Assembly: GCA_046710535.1 (NCBI GenBank)
Contig: JBKEHH010000014.1
Coordinates: forward strand, 13,927 to 77,926
Source of the DNA: Pseudomonadales bacterium
GTDB lineage: Bacteria; Pseudomonadota; Gammaproteobacteria; Pseudomonadales; CAWVSB01
Direction of reading: 5' to 3'
DNA length: 64,000 nucleotides
This document shows, piece after piece, positions 16,041 through 64,000 of the stretch. Each line of letters starts with the position of its first letter. The first letter of the stretch is position 1. The notes under the pieces are model-generated. The model saw only the letters and a program-made list of their open reading frames with translations. It made no database searches and was not told the origin of the DNA. A program made the position numbers and the translations under genes.

Positions 16041-16042
16041 TG

Positions 16043-20457: not shown

Positions 20458-20512
20458 GGTTTGATCCTGAGGATTTTTGTACTAATGAGGTAAATCATAC
20501 CTTGTACTGTGT

Positions 20513-21319: not shown

Positions 21320-21382
21320 CGCTATGAACTGCACTGATAAATAAGTTGTTACTAACAAAATAAATCTAATTAAAGGTTGTAG

Positions 21383-21826: not shown

Positions 21827-21829
21827 GCA

Positions 21830-24099: not shown

Positions 24100-24253
24100 A
24101 AATTTGTTCCTCATTTTAGTTATTAGTTGCCAGGTATTTGAGGAATAACCCCTGAAATAGTATGGTAAAAAAGCTAACTTTTTATTTAGCTGCTTTGTAA
24201 GCAAATAAAAACAATTCATATACGCACTCATCAGCAAGTATACTAAGCTAAAA

Positions 24254-24919: not shown

Positions 24920-24963
24920 GCAATTATTTTTAGTCGTTAGTCTTTAGTTTATGGAGTTAAATT

Positions 24964-26022
24964 GTGATCGAGTTTTTTGCCACCTACGGCATGTTTCTAT
25001 TGAAAACGCTTACCCTAGTTGTAGCGTTAGGTTTGGCTGTGGCTATCGTTATGTCGGCAAGTGGAAAAGGTCATGCCAGTGAAATCGGTAGTATCGAGGT
25101 TAAATCGCTTAACGATCGTTATATCAATATGCGCGAAACGTTAGAAGATGCGGTGTTAGATGAAGCCAGTTTAAAAAAACTAGCCAAAGATGAGAAGCAG
25201 AAGTTAAAGAAAGAAAAAGCCGAACAAAAAAAAGCTAGCAAGGCTGGAGACAAGGGCGAAACGAAAAAACGTGTGTTTGTATTAAATTTTGACGGCGATA
25301 TTAGGGCTCAAGCTGTTGACAATATGCGTGAAGAAATTACTGCCATTTTAACTATCGCCACTGAGAGTGACGAGGTTGTGCTGAAGCTAGAGAGCGGCGG
25401 AGGTGTTGTTCATGGTTATGGTTTGGCTGCTTCGCAGTTATGTAGAATTAAAGACAAGTCAATTCCGTTAACTATTTGTGTTGATAAAGTAGCTGCTAGC
25501 GGTGGTTATATGATGGCTTGTATCGGTAGTAAAATTCTTGCTGCTCCGTTTGCTATGTTAGGTTCTATTGGCGTCGTTGCTCAGGTTCCAAATTTTCACA
25601 AAATTCTTCAAAAGAACGATGTTGATTATGAATTGTTTACTGCCGGGGAATATAAACGTACGGTAACAATGTTTGGTGAAAATACTGACAAAGCTCGAGA
25701 GAAATTTAGTCTTGAATTAGAAGAAACTCATGATCTATTTAAAGCTTTTGTTTCGCTGCATAGGCCATCAATTGACATCCCTAAAGTTGCCACTGGTGAA
25801 GTATGGTTTGGTCAGCAAGCGGTTGATTTAGATCTAATTGATGAGTTGGGTACTTCTGATCAGTACTTGATGGAAGCAAGCGCTGCTGCCGAGGTTTATT
25901 CTGTAACTTATAAAACCAAGAAAACCTTACAGGAAAAATTAGGAATTGGGGTAGAAAATGCCTTGGTAAAAACGTTTGATAGAGCGTTTAAGGAGCTTCG
26001 CGACAATAAGTTTATCTCATAA
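24964..26022 (+). CDS. sohB: S49-family inner-membrane peptidase SohB
   Basis: N-terminal TM, Lys-rich linker, VAASGGYMMACIGSKILAAPFAMLGSIGVV. Confidence 0.85.
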   Translation: MIEFFATYGMFLLKTLTLVVALGLAVAIVMSASGKGHASEIGSIEVKSLNDRYINMRETLEDAVLDEASLKKLAKDEKQKLKKEKAEQKKASKAGDKGETKKRVFVLNFDGDIRAQAVDNMREEITAILTIATESDEVVLKLESGGGVVHGYGLAASQLCRIKDKSIPLTICVDKVAASGGYMMACIGSKILAAPFAMLGSIGVVAQVPNFHKILQKNDVDYELFTAGEYKRTVTMFGENTDKAREKFSLELEETHDLFKAFVSLHRPSIDIPKVATGEVWFGQQAVDLDLIDELGTSDQYLMEASAAAEVYSVTYKTKKTLQEKLGIGVENALVKTFDRAFKELRDNKFIS

Positions 26023-46426: not shown

Positions 46427-46693
46427 TCATTGCTCCGCCAGTATTAGGTTAAATTTCGTATAAAAATCTTCTAATGAGCGTTTGTCTGGTGAATCTACTT
46501 TAAATTTATTATGGAAGTACAAATATAACGTTGAGTCTCTATTTGAAATCATCAATGTGTAGCCGTCGAAAGAGCTTTCCGCCTGCAGCCCTTGGTAGAA
46601 TTTACCACCGTCTTGAGCTTCACCATGAGTATATATGGTATTAAACACTGCCATGATATCTCGCGGCGCTAACTTTCTCTCATCAGTTTTCAT
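46427..46693 (-). CDS. hypothetical protein (intact copy of a duplicated small gene)
   Basis: 88-aa ORF. A decayed paralogue at 48227-48436 supports real coding. Confidence 0.45.
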   Translation of the reverse strand: MKTDERKLAPRDIMAVFNTIYTHGEAQDGGKFYQGLQAESSFDGYTLMISNRDSTLYLYFHNKFKVDSPDKRSLEDFYTKFNLILAEQ

Positions 46694-46987: not shown

Positions 46988-48124
46988 CTATTTTTCCTCA
47001 AAAGTAACATTAGGCTCATTTTGATCAACATAAGCTTCTGTTAAATAGTCTCGGAAGCTTTCGTCATTTTGTAAAAAAGTTTTAAAAAATGCGACACCGT
47101 AAACGTTTTGTATGCGAAGAGACTCATCAACTGAAAACACATCAGGTGCACAAGTGTTTTCATAAATTGCTTGCAAAGGCGCTGCCGCCGGGACTAATGC
47201 AACCAGTTCATCAAAGCTGGGAAAAAATTCTAATGCGGCCTTTGCGATGTCGCAGGAGGTGGTGAAATGGTTATGACCAGCACCGACTATTTCAATATTA
47301 TAGACTGGCGATTTATCAACCTTAGCAAACGCTTCTCTGTTGGTTTCAATCGGCACACTAGTATCCAAGGTACCGCCAAGAAGTAGGGTAGGAATAGCTA
47401 GGCTTTTGTATTGTCCATCAGTGATCGGGGCGGCGGGGACAAAAAACCATCCTGCCACCGGCATACTGGCGGTTACGCGAGGATCTGCAGGTGCATCACC
47501 AAAACCGACAGCCATCCCCAGGGTCGTTACACCACCAAAAGAATGCCCTGTTACGCCAACGCTGTCTGGTAGGATCGTGCCTTCAAATCTGTCGCCGCTA
47601 GTACTGCTCATTATTAACATCTGATCGATAACAAATGACATATCTGCTGCACGATTTGCAACCTGCACAGCTAATTCATCGCCATTATCGCCATTTGCAT
47701 TACCGGCATGAGTTGGTGCAGCGACAATAAAACCCTGAGTAGCTAGCGCTTCCATCATCGAATAAGCCTGATTGCTCAAACCACCACTTCCGTGTGAAAA
47801 CACAATCAAATTACGGTCAGGTTTCTGTGACACCGGTAAAACTTCGCCGGCAATTTCAGATGTAATACCAATGCCATTTCCTAAATCATAAACCGCAGCC
47901 GGATCAGCCAAAAAGTCGATATCATCAACTGGATACCATATATCTACTTCCAGTTGTCTGTTGTCTCTCGTTGAATCAGTTATTGTAAATTTATCATAAC
48001 CAACACCAGAGGTGCCTTTTATTGACGGCAACTCTAACGGGAGAACCACTGATCTATCGCTTCCGCCGCCGTCACAAGCCGACAACAATGTAACTAGACC
48101 AGTTATTAAAACGAAACGCAGCAT
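46988..48124 (-). CDS. alpha/beta-hydrolase lipoprotein (PAF-acetylhydrolase/lipase-like)
   Basis: Lipobox LLSAC, nucleophile elbow VTGHSFGG, second motif FSHGSGG. Confidence 0.75.
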   Translation of the reverse strand: MLRFVLITGLVTLLSACDGGGSDRSVVLPLELPSIKGTSGVGYDKFTITDSTRDNRQLEVDIWYPVDDIDFLADPAAVYDLGNGIGITSEIAGEVLPVSQKPDRNLIVFSHGSGGLSNQAYSMMEALATQGFIVAAPTHAGNANGDNGDELAVQVANRAADMSFVIDQMLIMSSTSGDRFEGTILPDSVGVTGHSFGGVTTLGMAVGFGDAPADPRVTASMPVAGWFFVPAAPITDGQYKSLAIPTLLLGGTLDTSVPIETNREAFAKVDKSPVYNIEIVGAGHNHFTTSCDIAKAALEFFPSFDELVALVPAAAPLQAIYENTCAPDVFSVDESLRIQNVYGVAFFKTFLQNDESFRDYLTEAYVDQNEPNVTFEEK

Positions 48125-48226: not shown

Positions 48227-48436
48227 TTAAATTAAATTCAGTATAAAAGCATTATTATGAACGAGTGTGAGTTCTCCAAATTTGAATTTATTATGCAAGT
48301 CTATATATGCAGCTGAGTCTCTATTTCAAATTATCAAGGCATAGTCATCTACAGAACTAGCGTCAGCATGAGTATAAATAGCACTCAACACCGGCATGAT
48401 ATCTCCTGGTGTAAGCTTTCTCTGGTCATTATACAT
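48227..48436 (-). pseudogene. decayed paralogue of ORF 46427..46693
   Basis: MYNDQRKLTPGDIMPVLSAIYTHADASSVDDYALII*NRDSAAYIDLHNKFKF... compares with MKTDERKLAPRDIMAVFNTIYTHGEAQDGGKFYQGLQAESSFDGYTLMISNRDSTLYLYFHNKFKV. There is an internal deletion and an in-frame TGA. Similarity extends into the 5-prime leader. Confidence 0.65.
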
Positions 48437-48802
48437 AATGCGTAATACGTATTTTTATTTTAGGCTGACTGAAGCGACTAAACGGACGTATTATTACGCC
48501 AAATAGATTAAAACAAAGGGGAATTAAAACTACTAGTTTGCCAAGAACTGAACTCTAGTTTTTATCATTGGATTTTAGAAATCGTGTTAAAGCAGAGCTG
48601 CAAATTACTTACTCAATACAGTTTTTACCACCAGAATATTCTTGATAAATCAGTGATGTCTTTTTTGGGCTACGCCAAATTTTTACTCAAAGCAGTAATA
48701 TCACATATTGTCTTTTACTAAAAGTACATAAGTACTAATAAATATTATCAATAGATAGGGATGCCGATCCAACCACACGCACCCTATCTTTTCTTGATAA
48801 AG

Positions 48803-49597
48803 CTATTTCTTTGCTAGTTTCACAGGACGACGCAATTGCATATTGTACAATCTCGCAACGTTGCAATGTACTATATCACCAAAAATTTGGCGGGCTTTCA
48901 TGACACCGCCACCTGTGCCATAGGCGTCAAAGGCATTGCCAAAATCAACATAATTCGTATAGCCCTGAACCATTTTAAAATCAAAATCCACATCACCGCC
49001 ACCAAAAGCAGGCCAGAGAGTAAGCATAGGGCCGGTAATACCTTTGTTAGTTAAATAGTCACCCCAAATAGTTAAGGCAGCACCTGCGTCGGCAGGTGTT
49101 TTACCTTCGGCAATTTTGCAATCAGCAAAGGTCATTACCGCAGTATCAGGTGTTTCTACCGGACCTGCAGTTATTACATTAACTGCGAAGCTAGCATGTT
49201 GTGGGCAGTTCATGACCTTAAAGAAATCCTTAGTAGCATCTTGGCCTTTTTTGGACATCGTTTTTTCTATAGCTGCTCCCATTGATTTGCCGTCAGGCCA
49301 AAATCCCATCCAGACCACATCCATGTTCACACCAGGATCATTGAACATCGGTGTGAGTGTTATGCCTAAATAGTCATGCTGTTTTGTTTTATCCATCCAA
49401 GAGTTCCACTTGGCGGTCGCCTTATTTACTCCGCTAATATTTTGACCGTCTTTGTAGTTACATAAAAATATCTCTGCGGGTGAAAATTTCGGACCTTGAT
49501 GATTATCTGCCATTGCTGGACCACTGACTAACAGTGCTGCAAAAAGTGAGATAGTGGTTGAAACTAATTTTAAGGTTTTTATTGGTTTTATTAACAT
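48803..49597 (-). CDS. secreted hypothetical protein with apparent internal two-domain duplication
   Basis: Signal peptide ...LLVSGPAMA. Two halves of about 100 aa share a C..W..(W/Y)..L.P.F...G.A...G...F..(V/I)..C pattern. Confidence 0.5.
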   Translation of the reverse strand: MLIKPIKTLKLVSTTISLFAALLVSGPAMADNHQGPKFSPAEIFLCNYKDGQNISGVNKATAKWNSWMDKTKQHDYLGITLTPMFNDPGVNMDVVWMGFWPDGKSMGAAIEKTMSKKGQDATKDFFKVMNCPQHASFAVNVITAGPVETPDTAVMTFADCKIAEGKTPADAGAALTIWGDYLTNKGITGPMLTLWPAFGGGDVDFDFKMVQGYTNYVDFGNAFDAYGTGGGVMKARQIFGDIVHCNVARLYNMQLRRPVKLAKK

Positions 49598-50260: not shown

Positions 50261-51820
50261 CTAGAATTTTGCGTAATGTCGAAATTCATAGGGGGAATTA
50301 AACGGGAATGACTTTAGTCTATGCTCAAGATAATCATTGAATTCTTCTGTGAGTGCTTTGTATTGATGCCAAGGAAATTGAATAGTATCTATGAATTCAT
50401 AAAAAAATAATGATTCAAGAGGGTAGTGTTTTTTATGGTACCTAGTGAATTTCTCGCATATTTTATGATCATTACGCCTAGTCTGTATCTGATAACCATC
50501 TAACGGATAAACCACGTCCTTTAAGAATACTCTTAATTTACCCTCTTTAATCTCACAACTGTAATATTGATAATTATGAGGCCTTTCTTTATAAGGTGCA
50601 TAAAGCGTATCTGTTGTGAGGATTGATTCTTTGTTTACTTTTTCCCCAATATTATTCACTAATCTTTCTACTCGCTCGAATATATCGATAAAGCAGATTT
50701 CTAAGCTTCGTTGATAGAACCATTCAATAAAACGCTCTTCATAATTTAGATATCCTTCAATTATTAAAGGATGAAAGAATTGGAAAGGGTGATAAAAATT
50801 CCTATTATTTTCACTGTTTATCAAAAAAGGATAGTCTCTTATGGTTATAAAATTATGGATTTTTAGTGAATAGTTGAAACTTTCTACGTAGAAAAAATAC
50901 ACACTCAAAGCGGTACAAAATTTACATGATTTGGGTGCTTTTAAAAGATCTTTTAGACGTATAGATTTTAATGTGAATACTTTTGATCGATGCCCCTTAG
51001 GACATTGTTTTGCAATCCATCGTAAAATTCTGGTTAATGTTAGATATTTGACTCTCGCCATTTTAGCGATGAGTTTAGGTGAATAATTATTGATGAAAAA
51101 ATCTTCTCCTTCATATATCGGATTGATTTTTTCATATTTATTAAAAATGATAACCCGTACAGGTGAGATGGGAATTTTTAGAGATTGTAAGAGTTTATGA
51201 GTTACTTTTTTGTCTTTGATAGTGAGAATCGTTGGGTAATACCTGTCTTTTGGCGATATTTCATACCAGCCATCACCAAAAGATGGAATTGATCTCTGCT
51301 GAGAGAGATTTTCTTCTAAATAGTAGTAGTTTTTAGTCAACCAGTCTCTAAAAAGGTTGTCTAGTTTTTTTATAATTTTAAAATCGACATCTGTAAGAAC
51401 TAATTCAGGCTCTGAAGTAATATTTTGGGCACTATAGTCAATTGTCCCATCTTTTTTCGTGTTATCATCAAGACAAACTACAGAGGGAATTTCAGCGGTT
51501 AATTTACAGTGATGTATAGGGCAATGGGTTATCCAAGGTATATTAAAGATATCTGTATGGAAAATTATCTGTGCACATTTAGGACAAAATTTAAATTCTC
51601 CTATTAGTTGCGTAGCAATTTGATTGGAACTTTCAAACCCTTGATATGCGAGCACTCTCTGTTTGAACCCTGTAATCTCAGGAAATATGGTTTTCAAATA
51701 TTTATCAATAAATATTTGTGATAGTCCCCGATTTGCTACCATAAATCTCGTTATGCAGGAGAGCTCGCTTTCGTGAGGTCTCTTAAAATAGTCACCTGAG
51801 TTAAAATGTAGTCCCATCAC
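50261..51820 (-). CDS. tniQ: TniQ/TnsD-family target-selection protein
   Basis: TniQ-like N-terminus (PHESELSCITRFMVANRG) with a Cys/His cluster (FCPKC...WITHCPIHHC). 519 aa, comparable with Tn7 TnsD. 4-nt overlap with tnsC. Confidence 0.8.
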   Translation of the reverse strand: MMGLHFNSGDYFKRPHESELSCITRFMVANRGLSQIFIDKYLKTIFPEITGFKQRVLAYQGFESSNQIATQLIGEFKFCPKCAQIIFHTDIFNIPWITHCPIHHCKLTAEIPSVVCLDDNTKKDGTIDYSAQNITSEPELVLTDVDFKIIKKLDNLFRDWLTKNYYYLEENLSQQRSIPSFGDGWYEISPKDRYYPTILTIKDKKVTHKLLQSLKIPISPVRVIIFNKYEKINPIYEGEDFFINNYSPKLIAKMARVKYLTLTRILRWIAKQCPKGHRSKVFTLKSIRLKDLLKAPKSCKFCTALSVYFFYVESFNYSLKIHNFITIRDYPFLINSENNRNFYHPFQFFHPLIIEGYLNYEERFIEWFYQRSLEICFIDIFERVERLVNNIGEKVNKESILTTDTLYAPYKERPHNYQYYSCEIKEGKLRVFLKDVVYPLDGYQIQTRRNDHKICEKFTRYHKKHYPLESLFFYEFIDTIQFPWHQYKALTEEFNDYLEHRLKSFPFNSPYEFRHYAKF

Positions 51821-52764
51821 ACAGCCTTTATATTTTCTGGCACGAAGCCAGTGGCATCTAATGCACGCTCTACCATTTCTTCAGAGAGATGATCAACTCC
51901 GTAATGAGGCAAAAAATCAGTTAATAAAACATTCACCATTGATATAAAGTACTGCATACCCCAAGAATCAATCTGATATGCTTTTTGATAACGGGTGAAA
52001 GTACCCCATAATAAAGATGCCGCATCACTTAAGCGCCAATTATCATTAAACGCCTGTGGTAAAAAGAACTCTGTATAAACTGGACCGTCTTCTTTGGGAA
52101 AACGCAGTGAGTCGTATTGAGCAAGACACGCTTTGACATCAGCTTTATTTCGAAGGCCATAGAAGTTATAGATATTTATGAAAAATCGACCATGGATATG
52201 ACGATATTGTTTCTTTCTGATGACATGTAATAAAGACTCCGCCTCATCGCTATTCACCACAAGGAATACATGTAATTGGATTTTGTATTTCTCACGTAAA
52301 ATGTCATAGATTTGGCAAAAGACTCCACATTGCTCTGGTGATAATCGCTGTGCTTCATCGGCAAAGATAATAAACTGACGGCTCTTTTTCTCAGCCAAAC
52401 TATCGAGAATATAGCAGAGGAGATTATTCAGCATAGGTTCTACTCGCATGGTATTGGTAACAGGTAAATCCACGCTAACCAATAATGTTCTATAAAGAGC
52501 ATTTACTGTTTTTCGGTCAAGGGTAGGAACGGTCAGAAAGTGAGAAGGGATGATTTCGCCACGACGATTTTTCAGATTATCTCTAATGTAATCGAGCGCT
52601 GTAGTTTTTCCATGGCGCGCCTGCCCTTGTATCACTGCACCAGTGATGCCGTTCCAGAGCAGCTGTGTTAACTGGTCTTCAAGTAACTGAATAGCAGGTG
52701 TTCGTATGATGAGATCATAAGGATGGAACACGGGGTGATCGTAGTAATCAATGTTTTGTTGCAT
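51817..52764 (-). CDS. tnsC: TnsC/TniB-family AAA+ ATPase
   Basis: Walker A GQARHGKTT and Walker B FIIFADEAQRL. 315 aa, which is TniB-sized. Confidence 0.85.
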   Translation of the reverse strand: MQQNIDYYDHPVFHPYDLIIRTPAIQLLEDQLTQLLWNGITGAVIQGQARHGKTTALDYIRDNLKNRRGEIIPSHFLTVPTLDRKTVNALYRTLLVSVDLPVTNTMRVEPMLNNLLCYILDSLAEKKSRQFIIFADEAQRLSPEQCGVFCQIYDILREKYKIQLHVFLVVNSDEAESLLHVIRKKQYRHIHGRFFINIYNFYGLRNKADVKACLAQYDSLRFPKEDGPVYTEFFLPQAFNDNWRLSDAASLLWGTFTRYQKAYQIDSWGMQYFISMVNVLLTDFLPHYGVDHLSEEMVERALDATGFVPENIKAV

Positions 52765-54646
52765 GATTCGATACCATGAGTTTAGTGGATAGGGAAGTAC
52801 TCCAAGGTTTGATCTTCAGTGTAGTTTGGTCAACAGCTATCGCATCATATGAATGATCTTGAGATGGCTTTAATATAAGAGGTTCATCACCAGAATCCGT
52901 AAATTCATCATATATTTTAAGAATTTTCAGATTATCTTCAGAGTTACCTTTATGTTCCAATAAGTACCTAAAATAGCCTGCCAGTAAATCGGTAGCATGA
53001 AATGCATGAGCTTTCACTAGATTGTGAATATGTTTACGGGTTGCCAGGCTGTGTTTAAATCTACGCCACGATCTTGAAGCTAGTAATGTCCCTAATGCGG
53101 CACCGCCTGTCGTAAAAACACTTAATTCCCGAATGTCGCGTATATCGTATTCGACAGTTACGTAACTATCGTCTCTTAGAGCTGTATATAATTCTTGATG
53201 ACTTGAGGTATAGCGGACATAGAAGAAATTTACGTGGGGCTGTCTATTTTCTTTTTTTAGCCACTTAATCGGTAAATTTACTCGCCGCGTAAATGGTGAC
53301 CAGCGCTCTCTAAGGATCTCTGGAGTGTATCTCACATAATGATTCTGATGATGGTCAAGAAACAACGATAGAGGTGTTGTTGCGCCAAGGTGTGATTTCG
53401 GAGTCACATTATCTTGAGTCAATATAATACTGAGCGCCTCTTCTAATGTTCGCAGGGTAATCAACGGCACTTTTTTATTGTTTTTTCGTGATTCTTTTTT
53501 TGGGTCTTTAGGGTGTGATCCTGTAGTCGAGTTAGCACGATGACTAAAATTTATGTTGATATAGTTAAAGGCAGCTTCAATCCAGTTCCGTGTTTGGGGA
53601 ACAGCTGGGGGGCCAAAACTTAGAGTGGCTGACCGTTGTATACATATGACATCACGCACGCTATGGGAAAAATGGGATAAAGCATTATCCAGCTGTAAGG
53701 TATTAAAATTGATGTCTGTAATTGCTGGGTGACCTGATGGAAACATTGCTCCTGGTTCATATTGAAACCCCGGTGTTGTTAACTGTAATGGTTGCCAAGG
53801 TTTTATACATTTATCGAACAACATGAGAATGTCTTGTTGGTTAGGAGTTTTTGTATAGGCTATTGCAAAACCTAATTTGCAATTAGTATCGACGTCCATT
53901 GCCAATAAGAGGTTGATCCGTTTGATGCGAAGCGGAATCAACTCCTCATTGAGTTGAAGGTGGATACTAGTATGTAAATCCATGGTTTGTTCGTCAATTT
54001 GAATAGTTCTTAAAGCCCGCTGTGCTGGAAGATCGGAAATATACTTATGTGCTTTTTGATCGTGTATCCTCTTTAACTCATTACTGCGCTTGTGGAGATA
54101 TTGTCGTACTGATTCATAAGCCACACTTTGCGTGTTGTAGGGATAACAGTCGGTTGGATGATTAGCCTCTCTAAGCACATTCTTAAACTCACCATGAAAT
54201 ACCTTGGGCGTGAGATTTTGACTATAGGGCTTATCACTTTGGTATGCCTTAATCATGCTATCCAGACGACTTTCCATATATGGAACATGATTCAATAGCC
54301 ACTGAAAGCTATAATTCTGCCCACTAGTCATATCCATTGGTTGACGGCGTTCGCCTTTATTTAAGCGTTTATCAGGAATCAGCCCCTGAGTTAAAGGCGG
54401 AGGCTCATTCTCATCGCCACTCAAGCACCGATTGAGAATGTGGCTAACAAAAGAAGTGGAAACCTGATGAACTGTTGCTGTGTGCTTGATTGAGACGCCT
54501 TTTAGAACCGATAGAGCGATCTGCTGATTACGAATAAACCGTTTGCGTTTGGATTTATGTAAATTCGACACATCCACATAAGGCCATTCAGCAAGCTGCC
54601 GTAACCGAGGCTCTCTATCTAGGCGAACTGACCAATTGATCTGCAT
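52748..54646 (-). CDS. tnsB: TnsB-type DDE (Mu/retroviral-integrase-like) transposase
   Basis: N-terminal HTH region. DDE candidates are IQIDEQT, LQLDNALSH and WIEAAFNY. A C-terminal Mu-transposase-like beta domain is present. 632 aa. Confidence 0.9.
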   Translation of the reverse strand: MQINWSVRLDREPRLRQLAEWPYVDVSNLHKSKRKRFIRNQQIALSVLKGVSIKHTATVHQVSTSFVSHILNRCLSGDENEPPPLTQGLIPDKRLNKGERRQPMDMTSGQNYSFQWLLNHVPYMESRLDSMIKAYQSDKPYSQNLTPKVFHGEFKNVLREANHPTDCYPYNTQSVAYESVRQYLHKRSNELKRIHDQKAHKYISDLPAQRALRTIQIDEQTMDLHTSIHLQLNEELIPLRIKRINLLLAMDVDTNCKLGFAIAYTKTPNQQDILMLFDKCIKPWQPLQLTTPGFQYEPGAMFPSGHPAITDINFNTLQLDNALSHFSHSVRDVICIQRSATLSFGPPAVPQTRNWIEAAFNYININFSHRANSTTGSHPKDPKKESRKNNKKVPLITLRTLEEALSIILTQDNVTPKSHLGATTPLSLFLDHHQNHYVRYTPEILRERWSPFTRRVNLPIKWLKKENRQPHVNFFYVRYTSSHQELYTALRDDSYVTVEYDIRDIRELSVFTTGGAALGTLLASRSWRRFKHSLATRKHIHNLVKAHAFHATDLLAGYFRYLLEHKGNSEDNLKILKIYDEFTDSGDEPLILKPSQDHSYDAIAVDQTTLKIKPWSTSLSTKLMVSNHATKH

Positions 54647-55326
54647 GATTGAAACCGTGTAGGAAAGTCTAAGGGTGCTTCATTAAGATTGGCGCGAAAT
54701 TGCCCGTGATACAAGAGACGAAAAAGACCAATCTCGCGCTGATAGGTGCGCTCCCGATCCCCTCTATCAACAATATCACCCAGATAAAAGCAGTCTGTCA
54801 CGGTGCCAAATTCACCCAACAAATCAATCTCTGCTTGGTGAGTATCAATATCTACTGCTTGATGCAGCGTATGGACAATCATCAGCCAGTTCTCAGCGGC
54901 TAATTGCTGCTCAAACACAGTCTCATTAGCAAGTGTGCCGAAGCTCATTTGACGTAAAGCAAAGAATTGCTTGAGGGCCTCCACTTGGTTTTCATCAAAT
55001 TTACCCTCAGGTTTGAGTTCTAACACCTGCTGATCACCGTTTGCTTCAACGTAGATATCAGGTGTGTAGAAACCTCCAAAGACTTTTAACCGATACGGTT
55101 GCGGCACATAACGACGTACGGTGGGGTCACCTTCTAGCAAGGCAACATGGAGCAATTCGGCCAGTGAGTGAAATTCAGAAATTCCGGGGTGTTTCAGTAG
55201 GCAGCATTGAAAAAAATTTGTAGATTTCTTGAAATTCGGCCTAGTAGGCTGTTGTACCGGTTCAAGTGTATCGGCCCAGACATGCCTTGCCATGTCATAT
55301 CGAGAATGGAGTAACTGCTGGCTCAT
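54619..55326 (-). CDS. tnsA: TnsA endonuclease
   Basis: Restriction-endonuclease-like triad context: SLAELLHVALLEGDPTVRRYVPQP, YTPDIYVE, QVLELKPEG. Confidence 0.85.
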   Translation of the reverse strand: MSQQLLHSRYDMARHVWADTLEPVQQPTRPNFKKSTNFFQCCLLKHPGISEFHSLAELLHVALLEGDPTVRRYVPQPYRLKVFGGFYTPDIYVEANGDQQVLELKPEGKFDENQVEALKQFFALRQMSFGTLANETVFEQQLAAENWLMIVHTLHQAVDIDTHQAEIDLLGEFGTVTDCFYLGDIVDRGDRERTYQREIGLFRLLYHGQFRANLNEAPLDFPTRFQSCRSIGQFA

Positions 55327-55394
55327 GGCTTTCCCCCAGTAAAATGAAGAGACAAACGCTATCAGAAACAGGGATGCTTTAATACGCGGAGCTT

Positions 55395-55445
55395 TGCACC
55401 AATTATATATAGTTTGGTGCAGGTATAAAAACGCCTATTTTTATA
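55395..55445. promoter_or_regulatory. two adjacent perfect palindromes in the tnsA / recombinase divergent region
   Basis: TGCACCAA-N11-TTGGTGCA at 55395-55421 and TATAAAAA-CGCCTA-TTTTTATA at 55424-55445. A third TGCACCA lies at 55508-55514, just before the recombinase ATG. Confidence 0.5.
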
Positions 55446-55528
55446 GACAAATACGCTTAAAAGGCGGTTATGTCACCCACTTAAGCGGTTTATAATACCT
55501 CTCAATATGCACCAGAGTACAAGGGCAA

Positions 55529-56263
55529 ATGGTACAAACACATTACACAGACCATGAATTTTCGCCAACGCGCAGGCGCAACCTCTTTGCACCTATCGAA
55601 CGTCCTGCCGTCACGTTCCCGATACAGTCTGTCGTTATCGATTGGGATCGCCTGCAAGCCAAACGTGCCATCGTGCTAGAAACCGCCGACACCATGCCAG
55701 CTTACCTGCTGAAGCCCGAAATCAATCTCCTACTTGATGCGGAAAAAGATCCAATTTATCGCCTCATCTATGACTTAATGTGGACAACAGGAGCACGGGT
55801 ATCTGAAGTCCTCGCGTTAACCCCTGAACGCTTTACCAATGACGGCTACGATTACGGTGTTATTTTAAAAACACTCAAACAAGGGTCAGGACGACCAACT
55901 AAAAAGTCCTTACTTCGATCGAAAAAGCGCTATGTGCCCATCGTTGATCGGGGCGTACAAGATAGAATTCAAAGCTATTTATACACAGGACATTTTAGAA
56001 AGACTGAACACATATTTACCATGAAACGACAAACCGTTTGGCGACATATTCAGCGATTAGTGGAGAGAGTAGGGGGCGCACCATTTTCGATATCTACAAA
56101 GACCTTTAGGCATTCTTTCGCTGTTCATCTCATATTACATGGCAGGCCTTTAAAGATTGTCAGCAAACTCCTAGGACACGCATCGATACAAACGACAGAA
56201 ATTTACACCAACGTCCTAACGGTAGACGCTGGGCATTTTTTAGAAGGGGTGGATTTTCATTAG
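55529..56263 (+). CDS. short tyrosine recombinase (catalytic domain only; FimB/XerC-like)
   Basis: TGARVSEVLAL (Arg I), FRHSFAVHL (Arg II; the first His of HxxR is replaced by Lys: KTFRH), LLGHASIQTTEIYTNV (His/Tyr nucleophile). 244 aa with no recognisable N-terminal core-binding domain. Confidence 0.85.
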   Translation: MVQTHYTDHEFSPTRRRNLFAPIERPAVTFPIQSVVIDWDRLQAKRAIVLETADTMPAYLLKPEINLLLDAEKDPIYRLIYDLMWTTGARVSEVLALTPERFTNDGYDYGVILKTLKQGSGRPTKKSLLRSKKRYVPIVDRGVQDRIQSYLYTGHFRKTEHIFTMKRQTVWRHIQRLVERVGGAPFSISTKTFRHSFAVHLILHGRPLKIVSKLLGHASIQTTEIYTNVLTVDAGHFLEGVDFH

Positions 56264-56807
56264 AGAAAGGATATTAATAGCTCGGTGTATGTTGAAGACT
56301 GCCCGCTTAAAGGATTCATGATTACGTTTAATGCAGTTGCCTAGTAACTATGTTAAGTGTCTAGTAAAGTCTGGGAAGTTCAGGGAGTCCGAGTTCAAGA
56401 GATAGGTAGCCCTTTTTTACATTTCTTTTCTTCTTCCACGCGCCAGAGACTTTTTTCAAATTCTCGGTTTTTCTTTGGTATGGGGTCATTGGTGTTGCCT
56501 GTGGCAAATACCATTGTGCTCTTCTCGAAGCTGGCGGACTCATTTGTCCATGATAAATTTTCTAACTCCCAATGCTTTCTCTGTTTTGCGAATAGAAACA
56601 TCTTAGATTCACAACTAGACGTGCTGCCTGTAATCTAAATTCTGGGTTTTATGTCGGTCTCACTCGTCTGTTCATTGATCCGTAAGTAGTTATGAGATGA
56701 TAATGTCACCTTTTAATCAGGTGGTCAGCTTCACTATTACACTATCTACTACTTAACAGCCTATAAATGGATTATTCAGTTCGCATTTAGTGCTGTCAAA
56801 AGGCGAG

Positions 56808-57275
56808 TCATTTAGTTTGAATGGTTATTGTGGCGCTAACATTCCCAGGTTGCTTTCCTTTATTTAATGTTAATGACGTTATCTTGGTGCTTTTTGAGGA
56901 AGTATTTAATGCCCCGATAAGCGCTATGGTTTTACTATAAAGCGCATCATTGGTAGAGATAAGTACGCCTCCATCTGTTTTCGGTTGTATTCGATCCAAT
57001 GTAATTTCGTATTCGGCGGCAATTTTCGCGAGATCACTAATGGTAACTTCGTCAGTTCCAGTTCGAGTTCCATGATTGCTTTCTATCAGAGTATTTTTAT
57101 TTATCTGCATCCATGATAACAGCGACTTTTTTTCCGTATATCCATTTATAGCTTTTAGCTTCAGGGTATTGATAGAAGGCAAAATGACAAGCGAAAGAAT
57201 GATAGCTACCAAGGCAATAGCGTGACGCGGGTGTGATTTAGCATTGGTTTTAATTTGTTCTACGAGTTCATTCAT
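56808..57275 (-). CDS. gspM: T2SS GspM-like protein
   Basis: 155 aa with a single N-terminal TM (HAIALVAIILSLVILP) and a periplasmic ferredoxin-like-sized domain. It sits directly after the gspL-like gene. Confidence 0.55.
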   Translation of the reverse strand: MNELVEQIKTNAKSHPRHAIALVAIILSLVILPSINTLKLKAINGYTEKKSLLSWMQINKNTLIESNHGTRTGTDEVTISDLAKIAAEYEITLDRIQPKTDGGVLISTNDALYSKTIALIGALNTSSKSTKITSLTLNKGKQPGNVSATITIQTK

Positions 57276-57290
57276 ATTTTACTTGTGAGT

Positions 57291-58505
57291 CTATAAAGTG
57301 ACTTGTATTTTTGCACTGATAGTAGATTTTTGCTGATCTGCATTTAGTAATTTGGCTTTTGCACCATTTTCTTCAATCAATTTCACATATCGTTGTATTG
57401 CATCATGACTGGTGGCCTTAATATCTATAGTAAGACCGTTACTAGGCTGAAATCTCAACGATTGTATGTCAACTACATCCGCTGGTTTTAAAGCGCTTAC
57501 CAGCAACTGCTGAAGATTATTATTTGTTGCTGAACTAGTGTTATTGATATGTTGTTTAAGTTGTCTTTTAAGACTAATTATTCGTTTGTCTTGAGGATAT
57601 ATTTCCTTGTATAAGGCGACAGCTTGATCTTGGTATTCTTTTTCTTGTGACGAGTAGTAAAGCCACGACACGGTATTAATAACAACAACCATCAGAAGTA
57701 CAGCCGCTGCACTAATAGCAAATAACGGTTTTTTAATGAGATCGTATAACTCGTGTTTGATGTCTTTACGCTTATTGGGTAAAACGTCCCAGTATTCCAG
57801 TTCCGCTGAATGGTCTACTAACCATTGTTCGATCGGTACTGCTATTGAGGAATAGTCATAGCGGGCGTGTACCATATTACTGTCTATAGTCGGCTCACCG
57901 AAATGATGGTGAACTATGGAGTGGTCATCAGTACGTTCTCTTATAATACTTTCTAAAAATACAGTTAAATTTTTATAATCACAGGCGTAGGTGTTTGTTT
58001 GATCAAGGTTAATCAATACCATTGATTCGTCGCTGACAATTGTAATTGTCCTATTTGTTGATGAAATTAAGTGAGTATCTAAGATGGTTTTGCTGATGGG
58101 CACATGTTGTTTAGCTAAGAATGCGAGCCATTGGCTGGATAGCTGTTTATGTATGGCAACAGCTTTCCATTGATTTTCATCAAATGGGTGGCAGGTGATA
58201 GTGAATGCGTCAATATCTTCAAGAGCGTATTCTTCAAGATGATATTTGATGGTGTTGGAAATATGCTGGGATTTGTTATCTGTGTTAGGTAAATCGATGC
58301 AATCACAAATGGTGTGCATCGCTGGCCATACCAAAATACACTCATCCTCATCCTCATCCTCATCGTCGTTGATGACGGATATTAGCTGCGCGCCCGCTAT
58401 GAGTATTGCATCAACGCCTATTTCTTTCTGGTAGGCCTTAATACCTCCCCAAGTAGGGGTGCTGTTTATTGCCTGTTGATCAATAAATAGAAAATACCTA
58501 GTCAT
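57291..58505 (-). CDS. gspL: T2SS GspL-like protein
   Basis: 404 aa: about 250-aa cytoplasmic domain, one TM (LFAISAAAVLLMVVVINTVSWLYY) and a periplasmic domain. 8-nt overlap with gspE. Confidence 0.6.
   Translation of the reverse strand: MTRYFLFIDQQAINSTPTWGGIKAYQKEIGVDAILIAGAQLISVINDDEDEDEDECILVWPAMHTICDCIDLPNTDNKSQHISNTIKYHLEEYALEDIDAFTITCHPFDENQWKAVAIHKQLSSQWLAFLAKQHVPISKTILDTHLISSTNRTITIVSDESMVLINLDQTNTYACDYKNLTVFLESIIRERTDDHSIVHHHFGEPTIDSNMVHARYDYSSIAVPIEQWLVDHSAELEYWDVLPNKRKDIKHELYDLIKKPLFAISAAAVLLMVVVINTVSWLYYSSQEKEYQDQAVALYKEIYPQDKRIISLKRQLKQHINNTSSATNNNLQQLLVSALKPADVVDIQSLRFQPSNGLTIDIKATSHDAIQRYVKLIEENGAKAKLLNADQQKSTISAKIQVTL
58341..58364. repeat. hexanucleotide repeat (CTCATC)4 inside gspL-like gene, encoding DEDEDEDE
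   Basis: Read directly. Confidence 0.95.
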
Positions 58506-60000
58506 TGGGTTGCTCGACAGCGAGGCGAAGTACTTCTTCGATATTGGTTTCTAGATTTGATACTTTTTCTAGCCCTGAAGTTACCAGCGATCGATGGTCG
58601 TTGGGCAGTTGCTGCGCAATGACTTGCTCGCTTTCAGCTTTCGTAATGAGGTGTTTGAGTTTGTCGTCAATAATTACGAGTTCATATACAGCACTGCGGC
58701 CATAAAACCCTGTGTTGTTACACTCTGCGCATCCCTCTGGATGGGCTAGTTCTTGTGGTGGTTTAAGTTTATAGGTATTGAAGATATCGATTTCGTGCAC
58801 TGTGATTGGACGAATAATTTTGCAGTTATCACAAAGCTTTCGCACCAGTCTCTGAGCCATTACAGCGCTTAGACTGGAAGCTAGCAAATAGGATTCGACC
58901 CCCATATTGGTTAAGCGAGTAATCGCCCCAACAGCAGTATTTGTATGAAGCGTTGATAGGACGAGGTGGCCAGTGAGGCTAGCCTGTACGCCTATAGATG
59001 CCGTCTCGTTGTCTCGTATTTCCCCTATCAATATAACGTCTGGGTCTTGTCTAAGCATTGATCTTAAGCCGCTGGCAAATGTCATGCCAGATTTTTCATT
59101 GACTTGTGTTTGAGAGATGCCTTCTATATCGTATTCGATTGGGTCCTCAATAGTCAGGATATTACGTCGTAGCATGTCGATCGATTGGAGTGCTGCATAT
59201 AGTGTTGTGGTTTTGCCCGAACCTGTCGGGCCTGTCACTAGAATAATACCGTGCGGTTGAGCAATAAGCTTTTTGATGCTGCCCAGTAGTTGAGCATCCA
59301 TGCCTAAATTCGTTAGTTCGTAATTATTAGCGCCGTGAGCAAGTAAACGCATAACGATACGCTCACTTCTTTTTGTCGGCAGTGAAGATACTCGTACATC
59401 CATATCCGTGCCTAGTAATTGCATGGAGAAGCGGCCGTCTTGAGGTTTTCTCTTTTCAGCAATATCCATTTTCGACATCACTTTAATGCGCGATAATAAA
59501 AGATGGCCAATACTTCGATGCACCGATGCTGCTGACTGCAATACCCCGTCTACACGATAGCGAATCGTTAACTTGTCTTTACTGGTATCAATATGAATGT
59601 CTGACGCACGGCGTTTTAATGCTTCAACAAGCATAGCATTGACGAGTCTGATAACTGGAGCTGCATCCTCGCTATCTAGTAAATCAACTTTGTTGCCAAT
59701 ATCTAGCAGCGCATCACTTAACCCTTCGTTACCTGATAATGTATTTGCATCGGCAAATTCCTTACTTTTAGTATCTTCGTAAGTTTCGTAAGTTAGCTTT
59801 GCTATGTCTTCTTGACTCAGCAATTCTAGCTTTATTGACTTGTCTAAAAAACGCCTAACTTCCGCTAGTGCAGCTATTGGCGTTTTGTCTGAATATGACA
59901 CACACGGTTGTTGGTCTAACGTGTTGACGACGATATCAAAGCGTTTAGCCCACTGAATAGGGATACTATTCATCTTCTGGGGTTTCGCTGGGCTGTTCAT
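58498..60000 (-). CDS. gspE: T2SS ATPase GspE
   Basis: DLLDSEDAAPVIRLVNAMLVEALKRRASDIHI, Walker A GPTGSGKTT, Asp/His boxes and the tetracysteine motif CDNC...CAECNNTGFYGR. Confidence 0.95.
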   Translation of the reverse strand: MNSPAKPQKMNSIPIQWAKRFDIVVNTLDQQPCVSYSDKTPIAALAEVRRFLDKSIKLELLSQEDIAKLTYETYEDTKSKEFADANTLSGNEGLSDALLDIGNKVDLLDSEDAAPVIRLVNAMLVEALKRRASDIHIDTSKDKLTIRYRVDGVLQSAASVHRSIGHLLLSRIKVMSKMDIAEKRKPQDGRFSMQLLGTDMDVRVSSLPTKRSERIVMRLLAHGANNYELTNLGMDAQLLGSIKKLIAQPHGIILVTGPTGSGKTTTLYAALQSIDMLRRNILTIEDPIEYDIEGISQTQVNEKSGMTFASGLRSMLRQDPDVILIGEIRDNETASIGVQASLTGHLVLSTLHTNTAVGAITRLTNMGVESYLLASSLSAVMAQRLVRKLCDNCKIIRPITVHEIDIFNTYKLKPPQELAHPEGCAECNNTGFYGRSAVYELVIIDDKLKHLITKAESEQVIAQQLPNDHRSLVTSGLEKVSNLETNIEEVLRLAVEQPND

Positions 60001-61936
60001 TAACTTCTGAGGGCTGTTTGTTGGCAGCCCTATTTTGCTCTATAAATTCTTCTAACACTGAACCTGAACCAGGCAGTAAGAAATTATCAAGATCTTCATT
60101 CATGTCGTACTGATTTAGCTGCATTTGTTTGTAACGCTTTTTCGTCACTAAGTTGTTATCACTTTCTGTGTACAATATTTTTGGGTGTAAAAATACCATC
60201 AGGTTTTTCTTGACGATTTTATCGGAGGTGCTTTTAAATAGGCGCCCCAAATATGGAATATCACCGAGCAAGGGGATTTTACTTTCCGTCTGAGTGATCT
60301 CATCGCGAATTAATCCGCCTAATACTAAAATCGCATCATCATCAATTAACACATGAGTATTGATAGCACGCTTGTTGGTGACGATATCAGCTGTGGTAGC
60401 AGAGGTATCCGAGATGCTTTCTACAGTCTGATTGACTTCGAGATTAATTGAACCGTCATTATTAATACGCGGTTTAACTTTAAGCGTGACACCAATATCT
60501 TGGCGCTGAATAGTTTGAAATGGATTGTCGGTTGAAGATGATGCATTGGTAGATTGTCCGGTAATAAACGGTACGTTTTCTCCGACCAATATTTCAGCCT
60601 CTTCATTGTCTAGCACAACAATGGTTGGTGTAGATAACACGTTCGCAGCCGTATCGTTTTCGAGTGCGCGTATCATGGCGCGTAACTGGTCGTCTTTAAA
60701 CAACCCCAATGTTAGTCCTGACGCTATGGTAGGAGGGGATATGATATTGATATTCTTGGTGATAGTGTTTTGCCCTGCAAATACACCGTCGCTAGGAACA
60801 TCGGTTTGCCATTGTATTCCTAAATCTTTTAGTCGTTCTTCGTTAACCTCGACAATCAGAGCTTCCACAAGTACTTGCGCTCTGCGAATATCCAATTGAT
60901 CGATAATAGCGCGAAGCGACTTGATAATGTCGGGTGAGCCGGTGATAACCAGTGAGTTGGTTTGTTCATTGATTTCTATGGTAGTTTCGATGCGCTCACC
61001 AGGAGAGCTAACATTGCTTCGTAGCCCTGTGGCAACAGCTCGTAATGTCGGCATAAGTTTTGCGGCTTCAACATAATTGAGAAAAATAACTTGCGCATTT
61101 CCCTGGGTGTCTTGTGGGTTATCTAGCCTTCCTATGAGTATGCGCAACTGTCTTTTTTCAGACGAATTTCCAGCGATCAATATGCTATTAGTTCTTGGCT
61201 CCGCCACAATGGTGATTTTGCTATTCGCCGATGATTTTTGCTTAGCAGTTATTTTATTCAGTATGTCGACAATCTTGCCGGCATCTGCATAGTTAATAGC
61301 AATAATCTCTGCGTCAACATCACTGGTAATGTCGAGCTTGCTAATGATCGTAAGCAAATGTTCAATTTGTTGGTAGCGGCCAGAAATTATCAACGAATTC
61401 GTGCTGGGTTCAGCAATCAGCGAGCTGCCTTTGGCCGCGAGAGGTTTTACCAGATTGATGGTCTCGCTGGCATCAATATGCTTTAGACGAACTATTTTGG
61501 TGATGTTGTTTTCACTGGCTTGTGAAGATGACTTCTCATCAATCAGGGGGCTAGTGGGTTCAGTACCATTTGGAATTATTTTGATGACATCATCAAGCTC
61601 AATGGCTGAATAGCCGTGAACTTCTAATGTTGATAAGAAAACGTCATAAGCTTCTTTCTTGCTCATCGGATCACCCGCCAAAATAGTGACCTGACCGCTA
61701 ACCGACGGATGAATGACGATATTTTTGGTTACCAGAGTTGATGCCCAACGAATAAGTTCGCGAATATCGCCTTGCTCCATAGAAATCGAGATATTTCTTT
61801 CTTGGGATTGTTCAGCTGTAATGGCGTCAGTGGGTATGACTACTAGCACTGTGGTCAAAAAAATCATGACAAAGCTGTTGAGCCTATGGTTAACCCTTGA
61901 CGCAAACGCTTTTTTAATTGATGGGGTAAACAGCAT
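59966..61936 (-). CDS. gspD: T2SS secretin GspD
   Basis: N0-N3 domains (DIRELIRWASTLVTKNIVIHPSVSGQVTI...) and a secretin core (VPFITGQS...IPLLGDIPYLGRLFKS...NLMVFLHPKIL). Confidence 0.95.
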   Translation of the reverse strand: MLFTPSIKKAFASRVNHRLNSFVMIFLTTVLVVIPTDAITAEQSQERNISISMEQGDIRELIRWASTLVTKNIVIHPSVSGQVTILAGDPMSKKEAYDVFLSTLEVHGYSAIELDDVIKIIPNGTEPTSPLIDEKSSSQASENNITKIVRLKHIDASETINLVKPLAAKGSSLIAEPSTNSLIISGRYQQIEHLLTIISKLDITSDVDAEIIAINYADAGKIVDILNKITAKQKSSANSKITIVAEPRTNSILIAGNSSEKRQLRILIGRLDNPQDTQGNAQVIFLNYVEAAKLMPTLRAVATGLRSNVSSPGERIETTIEINEQTNSLVITGSPDIIKSLRAIIDQLDIRRAQVLVEALIVEVNEERLKDLGIQWQTDVPSDGVFAGQNTITKNINIISPPTIASGLTLGLFKDDQLRAMIRALENDTAANVLSTPTIVVLDNEEAEILVGENVPFITGQSTNASSSTDNPFQTIQRQDIGVTLKVKPRINNDGSINLEVNQTVESISDTSATTADIVTNKRAINTHVLIDDDAILVLGGLIRDEITQTESKIPLLGDIPYLGRLFKSTSDKIVKKNLMVFLHPKILYTESDNNLVTKKRYKQMQLNQYDMNEDLDNFLLPGSGSVLEEFIEQNRAANKQPSEVNEQPSETPEDE

Positions 61937-61951
61937 AAAATGAAAAATCCT

Positions 61952-62599
61952 TTATTGATCTCTTTTGGCGCGAAGTTTTCCCAGTCGATCACTAAGTTGG
62001 GAATAATTCTCTGAACTTCGCCTTACCAGCGGCTGCTGTTGCAGAGATGTATTTCGACCTAGGTTTTCGGCAGGCGTTGATACGGTTGGTTGATTGGTTG
62101 GCGTGGTGTAATGTGCATTATTATTTTTGTTAGACGCTAGCGCTTTTGCAGTAGGAAGCAACAGTGTTTCAAAGGCATCATCGCGTTTGATAGTGACTCG
62201 GTCGCTAAAGACCTCATGTAATGTCACGCCATCGGCGATGGTATCTTGTGTTAAAAACAGTTTTGCAGTGTTACGGGCGATAGCTATCAGCGCAGAGGAG
62301 TTTTCAGAGTTCTTTTTTACAAAGGTCGCAACTAAGCGTAGATCAAGATTTGTGGTCGGCAGGGCTTTAGGTGCCTTTATTGTTTTAACTGATTCGGCTT
62401 TTCCAAAAGGATGCAGGTCTGCAATCGAACTCAGTTTTAAGGCAGTACTATTTTGAGCGCTTGTTGTAAGTTCTGTTAATGCCAAATCGTATGCTACCGG
62501 GGTAGATAGCGCAGGCGCCAAATTGGCTATTAGAGTATAGCCAATCATGACGGTGGCGAGGATTATCGCACTTGCTGTTGTGGTCGTCGAAGATGACAT
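61952..62599 (-). CDS. gspC: T2SS GspC-like protein without PDZ domain
   Basis: N-terminal TM, an HR-like region (LHPFGKA...LDLRLVATFV...SSALIAI...LHEVFSDRVTIKRDDAFETLLLP) and a polar/basic C-terminal tail instead of PDZ. Confidence 0.55.
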   Translation of the reverse strand: MSSSTTTTASAIILATVMIGYTLIANLAPALSTPVAYDLALTELTTSAQNSTALKLSSIADLHPFGKAESVKTIKAPKALPTTNLDLRLVATFVKKNSENSSALIAIARNTAKLFLTQDTIADGVTLHEVFSDRVTIKRDDAFETLLLPTAKALASNKNNNAHYTTPTNQPTVSTPAENLGRNTSLQQQPLVRRSSENYSQLSDRLGKLRAKRDQ

Positions 62600-62794
62600 T
62601 CGATGGTCTAGTCCATTAAATTACGCTAGTAACAGTATTCATTCCTGCAACAGATCGTTACAATCAGCTGCTTAGTATAATTTACCCTAAGATAAGTTCG
62701 CTATCGTAATCTTTTCAGACTTGACTCACAAGGATAGCTTCGAGGGTAGTAGGTTGTTGTCCTACTTAAAGGAACAGGAGTTAAATAAGGGAAA

Positions 62795-64000
62795 ATGCCT
62801 CGTTATCGTTATAAAGCCATAGATGTGAATGGTGCCTTGCTCAATGGTGAGCTTGAAGGAGTAAGCGAGAGAGAAGCGCGGCAGAGCCTGCGCGACACGG
62901 CGTTAAAACCCGTTGAAATATGGCAGATCAAAGAGTATCGACAATTCACTGATTATTTTAGTCGCCATAGCAACGCGCCCCCCAAGCTAAATTCTGCAGA
63001 TCTTGCTGAAATCACGCGTCAACTAGCAACATTATTAGGTTCTGGTATGTCGCTAGATCAATCGCTCGGTGCGATTGCGTTATCCAGTGAGAATACTGCC
63101 AAGTCAGTGATCAACGAACTTAAAGTGTCAGTATTGGAGGGGCAAAGTTTAGCAAATAGTATGATGCGCTTTCCCAAAGCGTTTCCAACAATGTATAGCG
63201 CGATGATTGCATCAGCGGAACAATCAGGAAATTTAGAGTCAGTTTTAGAAGAGCTGGCTGATTACACGCAAGAACAGCATGACAATACACGTAAGATTCA
63301 AACCGCATTGATTTATCCTGTCATGTTAGTGGTGTTGGCGATTGTGATTGTCGCTGCGCTGTTAACGTGGGTGGTTCCAGATATTGTCGCGGTGTTTGAC
63401 GAGCAAGGGCAGAGTTTGCCATGGATGACCAAGGCGTTAATGGCCGTTAGTTACTTTTTTAGTCACTATTGGTTTTTGATGCTTGTTGGCATTATTTTAG
63501 TAGTTGTTCTAATACGTCTTTTGCTGCGTAAAACTGAATATCGATTACGGTGGGATAAAGCATTCCTATCGCTTCCTTTGTTTGGCGATTTATCGCGCGG
63601 AATAAATTTAAGCCGCTTTGTTAATACCTTGCATAATTTGGTTGCCAGCGGCGTGCCTTTGGTTGATAGCTTAAGTATTGCTTGTGAAGTGTTGACCAAC
63701 CAGCATTTAAAATTTCATATTTTAGCAGCTGCAATAAACGTGCAAGAAGGTGAAAGCTTGCATGTGGCGCTTAACAACACACAAGAGTTTCCGTCATTGA
63801 TGATTCATATGATTCATAACGGCGAGGTGTCAGGAGAGCTGCAGCGCATGCTGGCAAAAGCAGCGCTATTACAGCAGCGTAAAGTGGATCAAACATTGGC
63901 GACCGCAATTAGCCTATTTGAACCTGTTGCATTGTTAGTGATGGGCGTGATGGTGATGGCAATTGTTGTGGCTATATTGCAGCCGATTTTTGGATTGAAT
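62795..64000 (+). CDS. gspF: T2SS inner-membrane platform protein GspF (3-prime end just beyond window)
   Basis: Own translation from the ATG at 62795: MPRYRYKAIDVNGALLNGELEGVSEREARQSLRDTALKPVEI...LATLLGSGMSLDQSL...MIASAEQSGNLESVLEELA...LFEPVALLVMGVMVMAIVVAILQPIFGLN. 402 codons are open to the window end. Confidence 0.9.
   Translation, partial: MPRYRYKAIDVNGALLNGELEGVSEREARQSLRDTALKPVEIWQIKEYRQFTDYFSRHSNAPPKLNSADLAEITRQLATLLGSGMSLDQSLGAIALSSENTAKSVINELKVSVLEGQSLANSMMRFPKAFPTMYSAMIASAEQSGNLESVLEELADYTQEQHDNTRKIQTALIYPVMLVVLAIVIVAALLTWVVPDIVAVFDEQGQSLPWMTKALMAVSYFFSHYWFLMLVGIILVVVLIRLLLRKTEYRLRWDKAFLSLPLFGDLSRGINLSRFVNTLHNLVASGVPLVDSLSIACEVLTNQHLKFHILAAAINVQEGESLHVALNNTQEFPSLMIHMIHNGEVSGELQRMLAKAALLQQRKVDQTLATAISLFEPVALLVMGVMVMAIVVAILQPIFGLN

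Follow-up and report, generated by a model that had tools for sequence, protein, structure and literature searches.

The Xcp type II secretion system (T2SS) of Pseudomonas aeruginosa is encoded by two sets of genes, xcpPQ and xcpR-Z, which are transcribed divergently. T2SS genes usually form a single operon or locus, Legionella being a well-studied exception, and in Legionella pneumophila the Lsp system is spread over five loci, lspC, lspDE, lspFGHIJK, lspLM and pilD (PMC6617341). The Xps genes of Xanthomonas are arranged as xpsE, xpsF and then an operon reading from xpsG to xpsD, and experiments on this system have found that a trimer of C, L and M associates with E and D (PMC11981180). In type IV filament systems more broadly, genetic organisation is reported to be conserved within a type and to change when types diverge (PMC6668835). 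In this study we analysed a T2SS gene cluster at positions 56808 to 64000 of a 64,000-nucleotide stretch of DNA (the window) from a Pseudomonadales bacterium (GenBank assembly GCA_046710535.1, contig JBKEHH010000014.1, positions 13,927 to 77,926 of the forward strand), in which gspL and gspM directly follow gspE and gspF is transcribed in the opposite direction. As judged from its sequence, it is likely that the cluster specifies a single, complete and apparently functional T2SS of the Gsp/Xcp kind, encoded by two divergent operons, gspC-D-E-L-M and gspF-K, whose arrangement is a lineage-specific permutation.

Comparison with described systems

The cluster resembles Xcp in having two divergent operons around a short intergenic region, in its short GspC (215 aa), which like XcpP lacks a PDZ domain, and in the affinity of its secretin. 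Among solved structures GspD matches 5wln best (349 bits), followed by small margins by the T2SS secretins 5wq8 (340 bits) and 5wq9 (337 bits), and the clade to which GspD belongs is sister to loci of Xcp layout (see below); 5wln is the XcpQ secretin of P. aeruginosa (PMC11981180). The two systems differ in where they are divided, Xcp separating C-D from E-M whereas the window separates C-D-E-L-M from F-K, and the window GspD is only 39-41% identical to the GspD of Xcp-like loci. With Lsp the cluster shares its modules and breakpoints, F-K being one block and L-M and D-E each a pair, and Lsp demonstrates that a T2SS can work with these blocks separated. In contrast to Lsp, the blocks of the window lie at one locus in two operons; its GspD is about 32-33% identical to that of Legionellaceae, and the Legionellaceae loci that we surveyed show D-E only.

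The canonical Gsp, Eps, Pul and Out systems have the same motifs and draw on the same list of twelve components, N, O and S excepted, and the closest homologues of the window GspD and GspG (loci L084, L085 and L088 of our survey) have exactly the canonical order. Relative to that order the F-K block of the window is relocated and inverted, and its GspC is without the PDZ domain that is present in OutC and EpsC (PMC11981180). Xps is another functional permutation and differs in its gene order from the window, but its C, L, M, E and D are the five proteins of the minus-strand operon found here.

Gene content and organisation of the cluster

The features of the cluster within the window are as follows.

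56808..57275, minus strand: gspM, 155 aa, inner-membrane assembly-platform protein, Pfam T2SSM, N-terminal transmembrane (TM) helix
57291..58505, minus strand: gspL, 404 aa, cytoplasmic domain, TM helix at residues 261-279 and periplasmic GspL_C domain
58498..60000, minus strand: gspE, 500 aa, secretion ATPase; an alternative start at 59973 gives 491 aa
59966..61936, minus strand: gspD, 656 aa, outer-membrane secretin with signal peptide, N0, three Secretin_N and Secretin domains
61952..62599, minus strand: gspC, 215 aa, short form, TM helix at residues 9-27, HR domain at 34-148
62600..62794, no strand: gspC/gspF intergenic region, 195 bp, divergent; from the layout, both promoters are presumed to lie inside
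62795..64000, plus strand: gspF, ATG start; the window ends at residue 402 of 405

The identities of C, D, E, L, M and F proposed in the initial annotation were confirmed by Pfam, each protein matching above the gathering cut-off. GspC matched T2SSC with 72 bits, and this was its sole Pfam match at E<=0.01, no PDZ domain being found. In GspD the Pfam domains are joined by a match to NCBIfam TIGR02517 (482, cut-off 351). GspE matched T2SSE with 463 bits together with the N1E domain (GSPE_N1E), and scored 599 against TIGR02533, slightly under the equivalog cut-off of 630; it contains a Walker A motif (GPTGSGKT, residue 257), a Walker B motif (VILIGEIRD), as well as a His box and, at residues 390 and 424, the CxxC pair of the tetracysteine motif. 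Both gspL and gspM passed T2SS profiles, GspL with T2SSL (42.8 bits), GspL_C (52.2 bits) and TIGR01709 (89.4, cut-off 65), and GspM with T2SSM (33.5 bits, cut-off 27.8) and a TM helix at residues 20-38 in a hydropathy scan. Against NCBIfam, GspC and GspM gave no match at threshold. GspF matched T2SSF in two stretches (182 bits) and TIGR02120 with 423.2 against a cut-off of 424, for a query that is cut by the window end. TM segments occur at the expected places in GspC, GspL, GspM and GspF, and the hallmark motifs of a T2SS are all intact. An acidic run, NDDEDEDEDE, was also seen at residues 46-55 of GspL, in the cytoplasmic domain that in other systems is the GspE-binding domain.

The adjacency of gspE and gspL, the overlaps and the 195-bp gap described initially can all be read in the sequence. 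The overlap between gspE and gspL is 8 nt, ATGACTAG, and both frames are intact, while gspL and gspM are spaced by 15 nt. The overlap between gspD and gspE is 35 nt if the first gspE ATG is used, but a second in-frame ATG at 59973, nine codons downstream, would reduce it to 8 nt (ATGAATAG). Since alignments of GspE homologues begin at residues 8-13, the second start, with the shorter overlap, is no less probable than the first.

The divergent gspF was thought from the outset to head the pseudopilin genes, and this was borne out by a 15.1-kb Logan contig (L001, from SRR28961167) that was found by exact-protein look-up and reaches 2.5 kb past the window. L001 has 4 mismatches in 12,565 nt relative to window positions 51436-64000 (99.97% identity) and carries gspF (405 aa), gspG (149 aa), gspH (169 aa), gspI (132 aa), gspJ (250 aa) and gspK in this order. 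GspG matched Pfam T2SSG and N_methyl; GspI and GspJ matched N_methyl and, weakly, T2SSI and T2SSJ, respectively; GspH gave a weak N_methyl match, and the partial GspK was recognised by iterative search only. The prepilin motif G-F-T-L-(I/L)-E is found in GspG, H, I and J, and the N-terminus of GspK has the usual glutamate-less form. The identities of all eleven T2SS genes from C to M are thus established, and the overall order is K-J-I-H-G-F / C-D-E-L-M rather than the canonical single-operon order from C to M. The canonical order is characteristic of a T2SS without defining it, as Xcp, Xps and Lsp deviate from it too.

Relatives and ancestry of the components

For comparison we surveyed 80 loci from genomes that carry GspE and 80 from metagenomes that gave a GspD alignment; their genes were annotated by iterative searching, with the proteins of the window as seeds. 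GspD aligned with 532-541 bits to L043, L062 and L068, the next group scoring 380 bits, and its identity to these three loci and L084 was 43-49%, the closest homologue being L084 (48-49%). The GspG of the system is 60-63% identical to those of L084, L085, L088 and L062; GspI, J, L and M found their best matches in the same set of loci as GspD and GspG, the best relatives of GspM being L043, L091 and L068. A neighbour-joining (NJ) tree of GspD placed the window inside this clade with 85-89% bootstrap support and joined the clade to L099 and L113, two loci of Xcp-like layout, at 99-100%. The short GspC (215-217 aa) is also a feature of the relatives L062, L068 and L084. Because GspD, G, I, J, L and M all point to one clade, the two operons are, on sequence affinity, evidently the halves of one ancestral system.

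GspE and GspF are equidistant from all T2SS (46-51% and 40-44% identity, respectively) and were rejected as markers for placing the system, being too conserved. The closest GspE (P0004, 548 bits) stands in an ordinary E-F context and was set aside as uninformative on the E-L junction.

Among the members of the clade are metagenome-assembled genomes (MAGs) from the order and the family of the host, L062 (Pseudomonadales) and L068 (Spongiibacteraceae), as well as L043, which was binned as Verrucomicrobiaceae. Core genes occupy 11-26 kb of the window and comprise an opp ABC transporter, an M3 oligopeptidase, mltD, gloB, rnhA, dnaQ, nhaB and sohB. The M3 peptidase has its closest named relative in an Oceanicoccus MAG (64% identity), and the stretch from opp to nhaB (window 11-24 kb, with the M3 peptidase, mltD, gloB, rnhA and dnaQ between) is syntenic with that MAG, the synteny around the M3 peptidase not extending as far as any T2SS. 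On the basis of this affinity and synteny, the host is judged to be an uncultured Spongiibacteraceae-like marine gammaproteobacterium close to Oceanicoccus, and the window to be chromosomal. In L099, one of the loci with an Xcp layout, sohB, dnaQ, rnhA, gloB and mltD directly adjoin gspD (positions 11985-21420 of that locus), and the same genes from sohB to mltD are found in the window (18167-26022) about 30 kb from the T2SS. Such loose long-range synteny might indicate that the T2SS sits in an old chromosomal neighbourhood.

Gene order among relatives

The survey confirmed that relatives do not all share the gene order of the window. In this sample, which is biased by the way it was collected, the gene following gspE was gspF at 61 of the loci where it could be identified, a non-gsp gene at another 61, mostly 'D-E' loci of Legionellaceae, and gspL at just 3, these being the window's own contig, L043 and L068. 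In the same survey, and subject to the same bias, gspF was divergent from gspC in the window only. Most members of the clade have the canonical order (L084, L085, L087, L088, L091 and L062), and several others are interrupted at the junctions at which the window is. The order C-D-E-L-M is found in L043 and L068, the gene upstream of gspC in L068 being other than gspF. In two metagenome loci, L093 and L094, gspC-D is followed directly by gspL-M without gspE between, and these belong to the sister group of the C-D-E-L-M loci. In L089 the pair M-L is divergent from C-D-E. Outside the clade we found C-D-E-F convergent with a block running from M to G, a block from G to M followed by C-D-E-F, and the Xcp layout. 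The layout described here is uncommon, and similar reshuffles are frequent in related systems.

At L089, five small open reading frames (ORFs) of 109-160 aa were also observed right after gspE (7056-8948, minus strand), at least three of them with signal-peptide-like N-termini. It is possible that these ORFs encode co-located substrates.

The F-K block of the window would have left its place between E and L and now be inverted upstream of C, which could have come about by one inverted transposition or by two nested inversions, first of C-K and then of C-E. The working of the system may be sketched from its protein families, GspD being the secretin in the outer membrane and GspC, L and M probably forming an inner-membrane cage that would contact GspD through the HR domain of GspC. 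The hexameric ATPase GspE would dock on the cytoplasmic domain of GspL, and GspF would form the core of the platform, while GspG would build the pseudopilus, with H-I-J-K at its tip, that expels folded periplasmic proteins. GspC, L and M are known to assemble with each other, and their complex associates with GspE and GspD (PMC11981180). Seen in this light, the operon split may separate D and the C-L-M-E scaffold from F and the pseudopilus core, and the 8-nt overlap of gspE and gspL would permit translational coupling of these two genes, whose products bind each other. A more ambitious idea is that repeated breaks at E|F and K|L in this clade, with the secretin and the C-L-M-E scaffold in one operon of the window and GspF and the pseudopilus in the other, reflect selection for two assembly sub-complexes that are dosed or timed separately from a single bidirectional control region, so that operon architecture would record the assembly pathway, but we consider this unlikely.

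Weighing of the interpretation

Most likely, the cluster encodes an Xcp-related T2SS native to the host, in which known modules have been reshuffled in a lineage-specific way. Several observations count against this interpretation and need to be set beside the evidence above. L001 ends inside gspK, of which the first 139 aa are present, and the last gene of the second operon is incomplete. Neither gspO (the prepilin peptidase) nor gspN nor a pilotin gene was seen among the window ORFs (Pfam) or in L001; the prepilin peptidase is often encoded elsewhere, as with pilBCD of Legionella (PMC6617341). A scan of the 195-bp gap (62600-62794) for sigma-70 promoters and terminators gave results not above shuffled expectation. 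In tetranucleotide distance the T2SS (14-16) slightly exceeds the backbone windows (9-12), which are themselves inside the reference set. Finally, GspL, GspM and GspC are very divergent, with 24-30% identity to anything else. For GspL a scan of genome contigs recovered no relative and a word-indexed search returned the protein itself and one weak match, its divergence being beyond what these two methods can bridge, and an exhaustive HMMER search of 1.84 billion representatives retrieved only itself at E<=1e-30, the best non-self match in that search having 24% identity and 79 bits. With proteins so divergent, the function of GspL, GspM and GspC might be altered.

The promoter result bears also on the suggestion that the gap acts as a shared bidirectional control region. 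The divergent layout expected of such a region is there, and at the least both transcription units have to begin within the gap, but the promoter scan was at chance level and no operator-like repeats came to light in the gap beyond a weak 12-nt inverted repeat and a 9-nt palindrome; nor was any Rfam family matched across the whole window, the gap included. Shared control is a reasonable guess from the layout and not an observation.

Alternative explanations

Rather than being confined to the lineage of the host, the C-D-E-L-M order could be an old trait of a sub-lineage of Spongiibacteraceae that includes the window, L068 and L043, and perhaps L089. The adjacency of E and L in L043 and L068 is what would be expected of such a trait, as is the origin of L068, a Spongiibacteraceae MAG, when the host is itself Oceanicoccus-like. 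An NJ tree of D, L and M together joins the window, L043 and L068 in 32% of bootstraps, and the GspE tree pairs the window with L089, the locus with M-L/C-D-E, in 92%. The GspD tree, on the other hand, joins the window with L043 and L068 in just 1-10% of bootstraps, the canonical loci L091 and L084 are placed among these loci, the gene before gspC in L068 is one other than gspF, and identities of 18-25% in L and M make for weak trees. The GspE identity of the window and L089 (46%) is no better than that to other loci; their pairing was treated as unreliable and is probably due to long-branch attraction. On balance an old shared trait seems to us a tentative proposal, less likely than not.

It was also proposed in the initial annotation that the cluster is a second, accessory T2SS, and the DNA downstream of gspM is relevant here. 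The 3' side of gspM has 544 bp without a recognisable gene, followed by a tyrosine recombinase and then a Tn7-like module (50261-55326), and the mobile element does adjoin the cluster as had been noted.

55529-56263, plus strand: tyrosine recombinase, 244 aa
54619-55326, minus strand: TnsA-like protein, weak match
52748-54646, minus strand: TnsB-sized protein, 632 aa, no Pfam match
51817-52764, minus strand: TnsC/TniB-like protein, AAA_22
50261-51820, minus strand: TniQ, weak match

A search for the ends of the Tn7-like element gave no convincing repeated TnsB-type sites that would mark its boundary relative to gspM. The two neighbouring proteins are of the secreted type, as first described: the hydrolase (46988-48124) has a lipobox, LLSAC, and the 264-aa protein (48803-49597) has a Sec signal peptide. 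A T2SS acquired horizontally with or near mobile DNA, perhaps dedicated to these signal-peptide proteins and supplementing a canonical system elsewhere, would account for the recombinase and Tn7-like module directly downstream of gspM and for the presence of the two proteins. The unusual divergence of GspL, GspM and GspC and the slightly raised tetranucleotide distance of the T2SS could be read in the same way, as could the Verrucomicrobiaceae binning of the clade locus L043, which might reflect either transfer or mis-binning.

The step from adjoining a mobile element to being an accessory system, however, finds no support other than the adjacency itself. The gsp genes have GC contents of 0.38-0.45 each and resemble core genes in GC and in GC at third codon positions (GC3), unlike the Tn7-like block (GC 0.32-0.41, tetranucleotide distance 23-25), which is clearly foreign in composition. 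In classical Tn7 the cargo is carried beyond the transposition genes as seen from tnsA. The T2SS adjoins the tnsA side of the element, outside the gene module from tnsA to tniQ. In addition, its clade is represented among MAGs taxonomically close to the host, one of the same order (L062) and one of the same family (L068), nothing ties the two secreted proteins to this system, and no second T2SS occurs within the 64-66 kb examined. Horizontal acquisition as an accessory system is, in our view, improbable, and the reading of the cluster as the host's own T2SS is preferred.

That the unusual order is an artefact of a chimeric MAG contig is highly improbable: the source is indeed a metagenome-assembled contig and two genes elsewhere in the window are split or frameshifted, but a separate Logan assembly, possibly from the same reads, is 99.97% identical and agrees in gene order, coding sequences overlap by 8 nt at the E/L junction without damage to either frame, and the same E-L adjacency occurs in two unrelated assemblies (L043 and L068).

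Other features of the window

Some features away from the T2SS were recorded in passing. At 9556-10500 (plus strand) a 314-aa protein corresponds to the ATPase part of the transcription terminator Rho, and its identity to residues 145-427 of Rho-like ORFs at other loci is 50%. The sequence upstream does not encode an N-terminal RNA-binding domain, and we take the gene to be a truncated paralogue of Rho or else a damaged one. At 7645-8365 (plus strand) two overlapping ORFs in different frames encode the N- and C-terminal halves of a Peptidase_M90 (MtfA-like) protein, and the split represents a frameshift or an assembly error. A DUF3081 gene (46427-46693) has a partial second copy of about 157 nt at 48281-48437, with 75% identity and 1.8 kb away; this copy, flanked by the genes of the lipoprotein hydrolase and of the 264-aa secreted protein, is maybe what is left of a duplication or of a second element.

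Significance

Analysis of this locus reveals no new mechanism and no new kind of system. Together with its relatives, the locus extends the known range of T2SS gene-order variants by one well-documented case, and it is mildly useful for secretion-system detection tools that rely on gene order or co-localisation, as well as for thinking about the co-expression of partners such as E-L and C-L-M. The comparison suggests that F-K, L-M and C-D(-E) act as movable modules, and that these modules match known sub-complexes of the secretion machinery.

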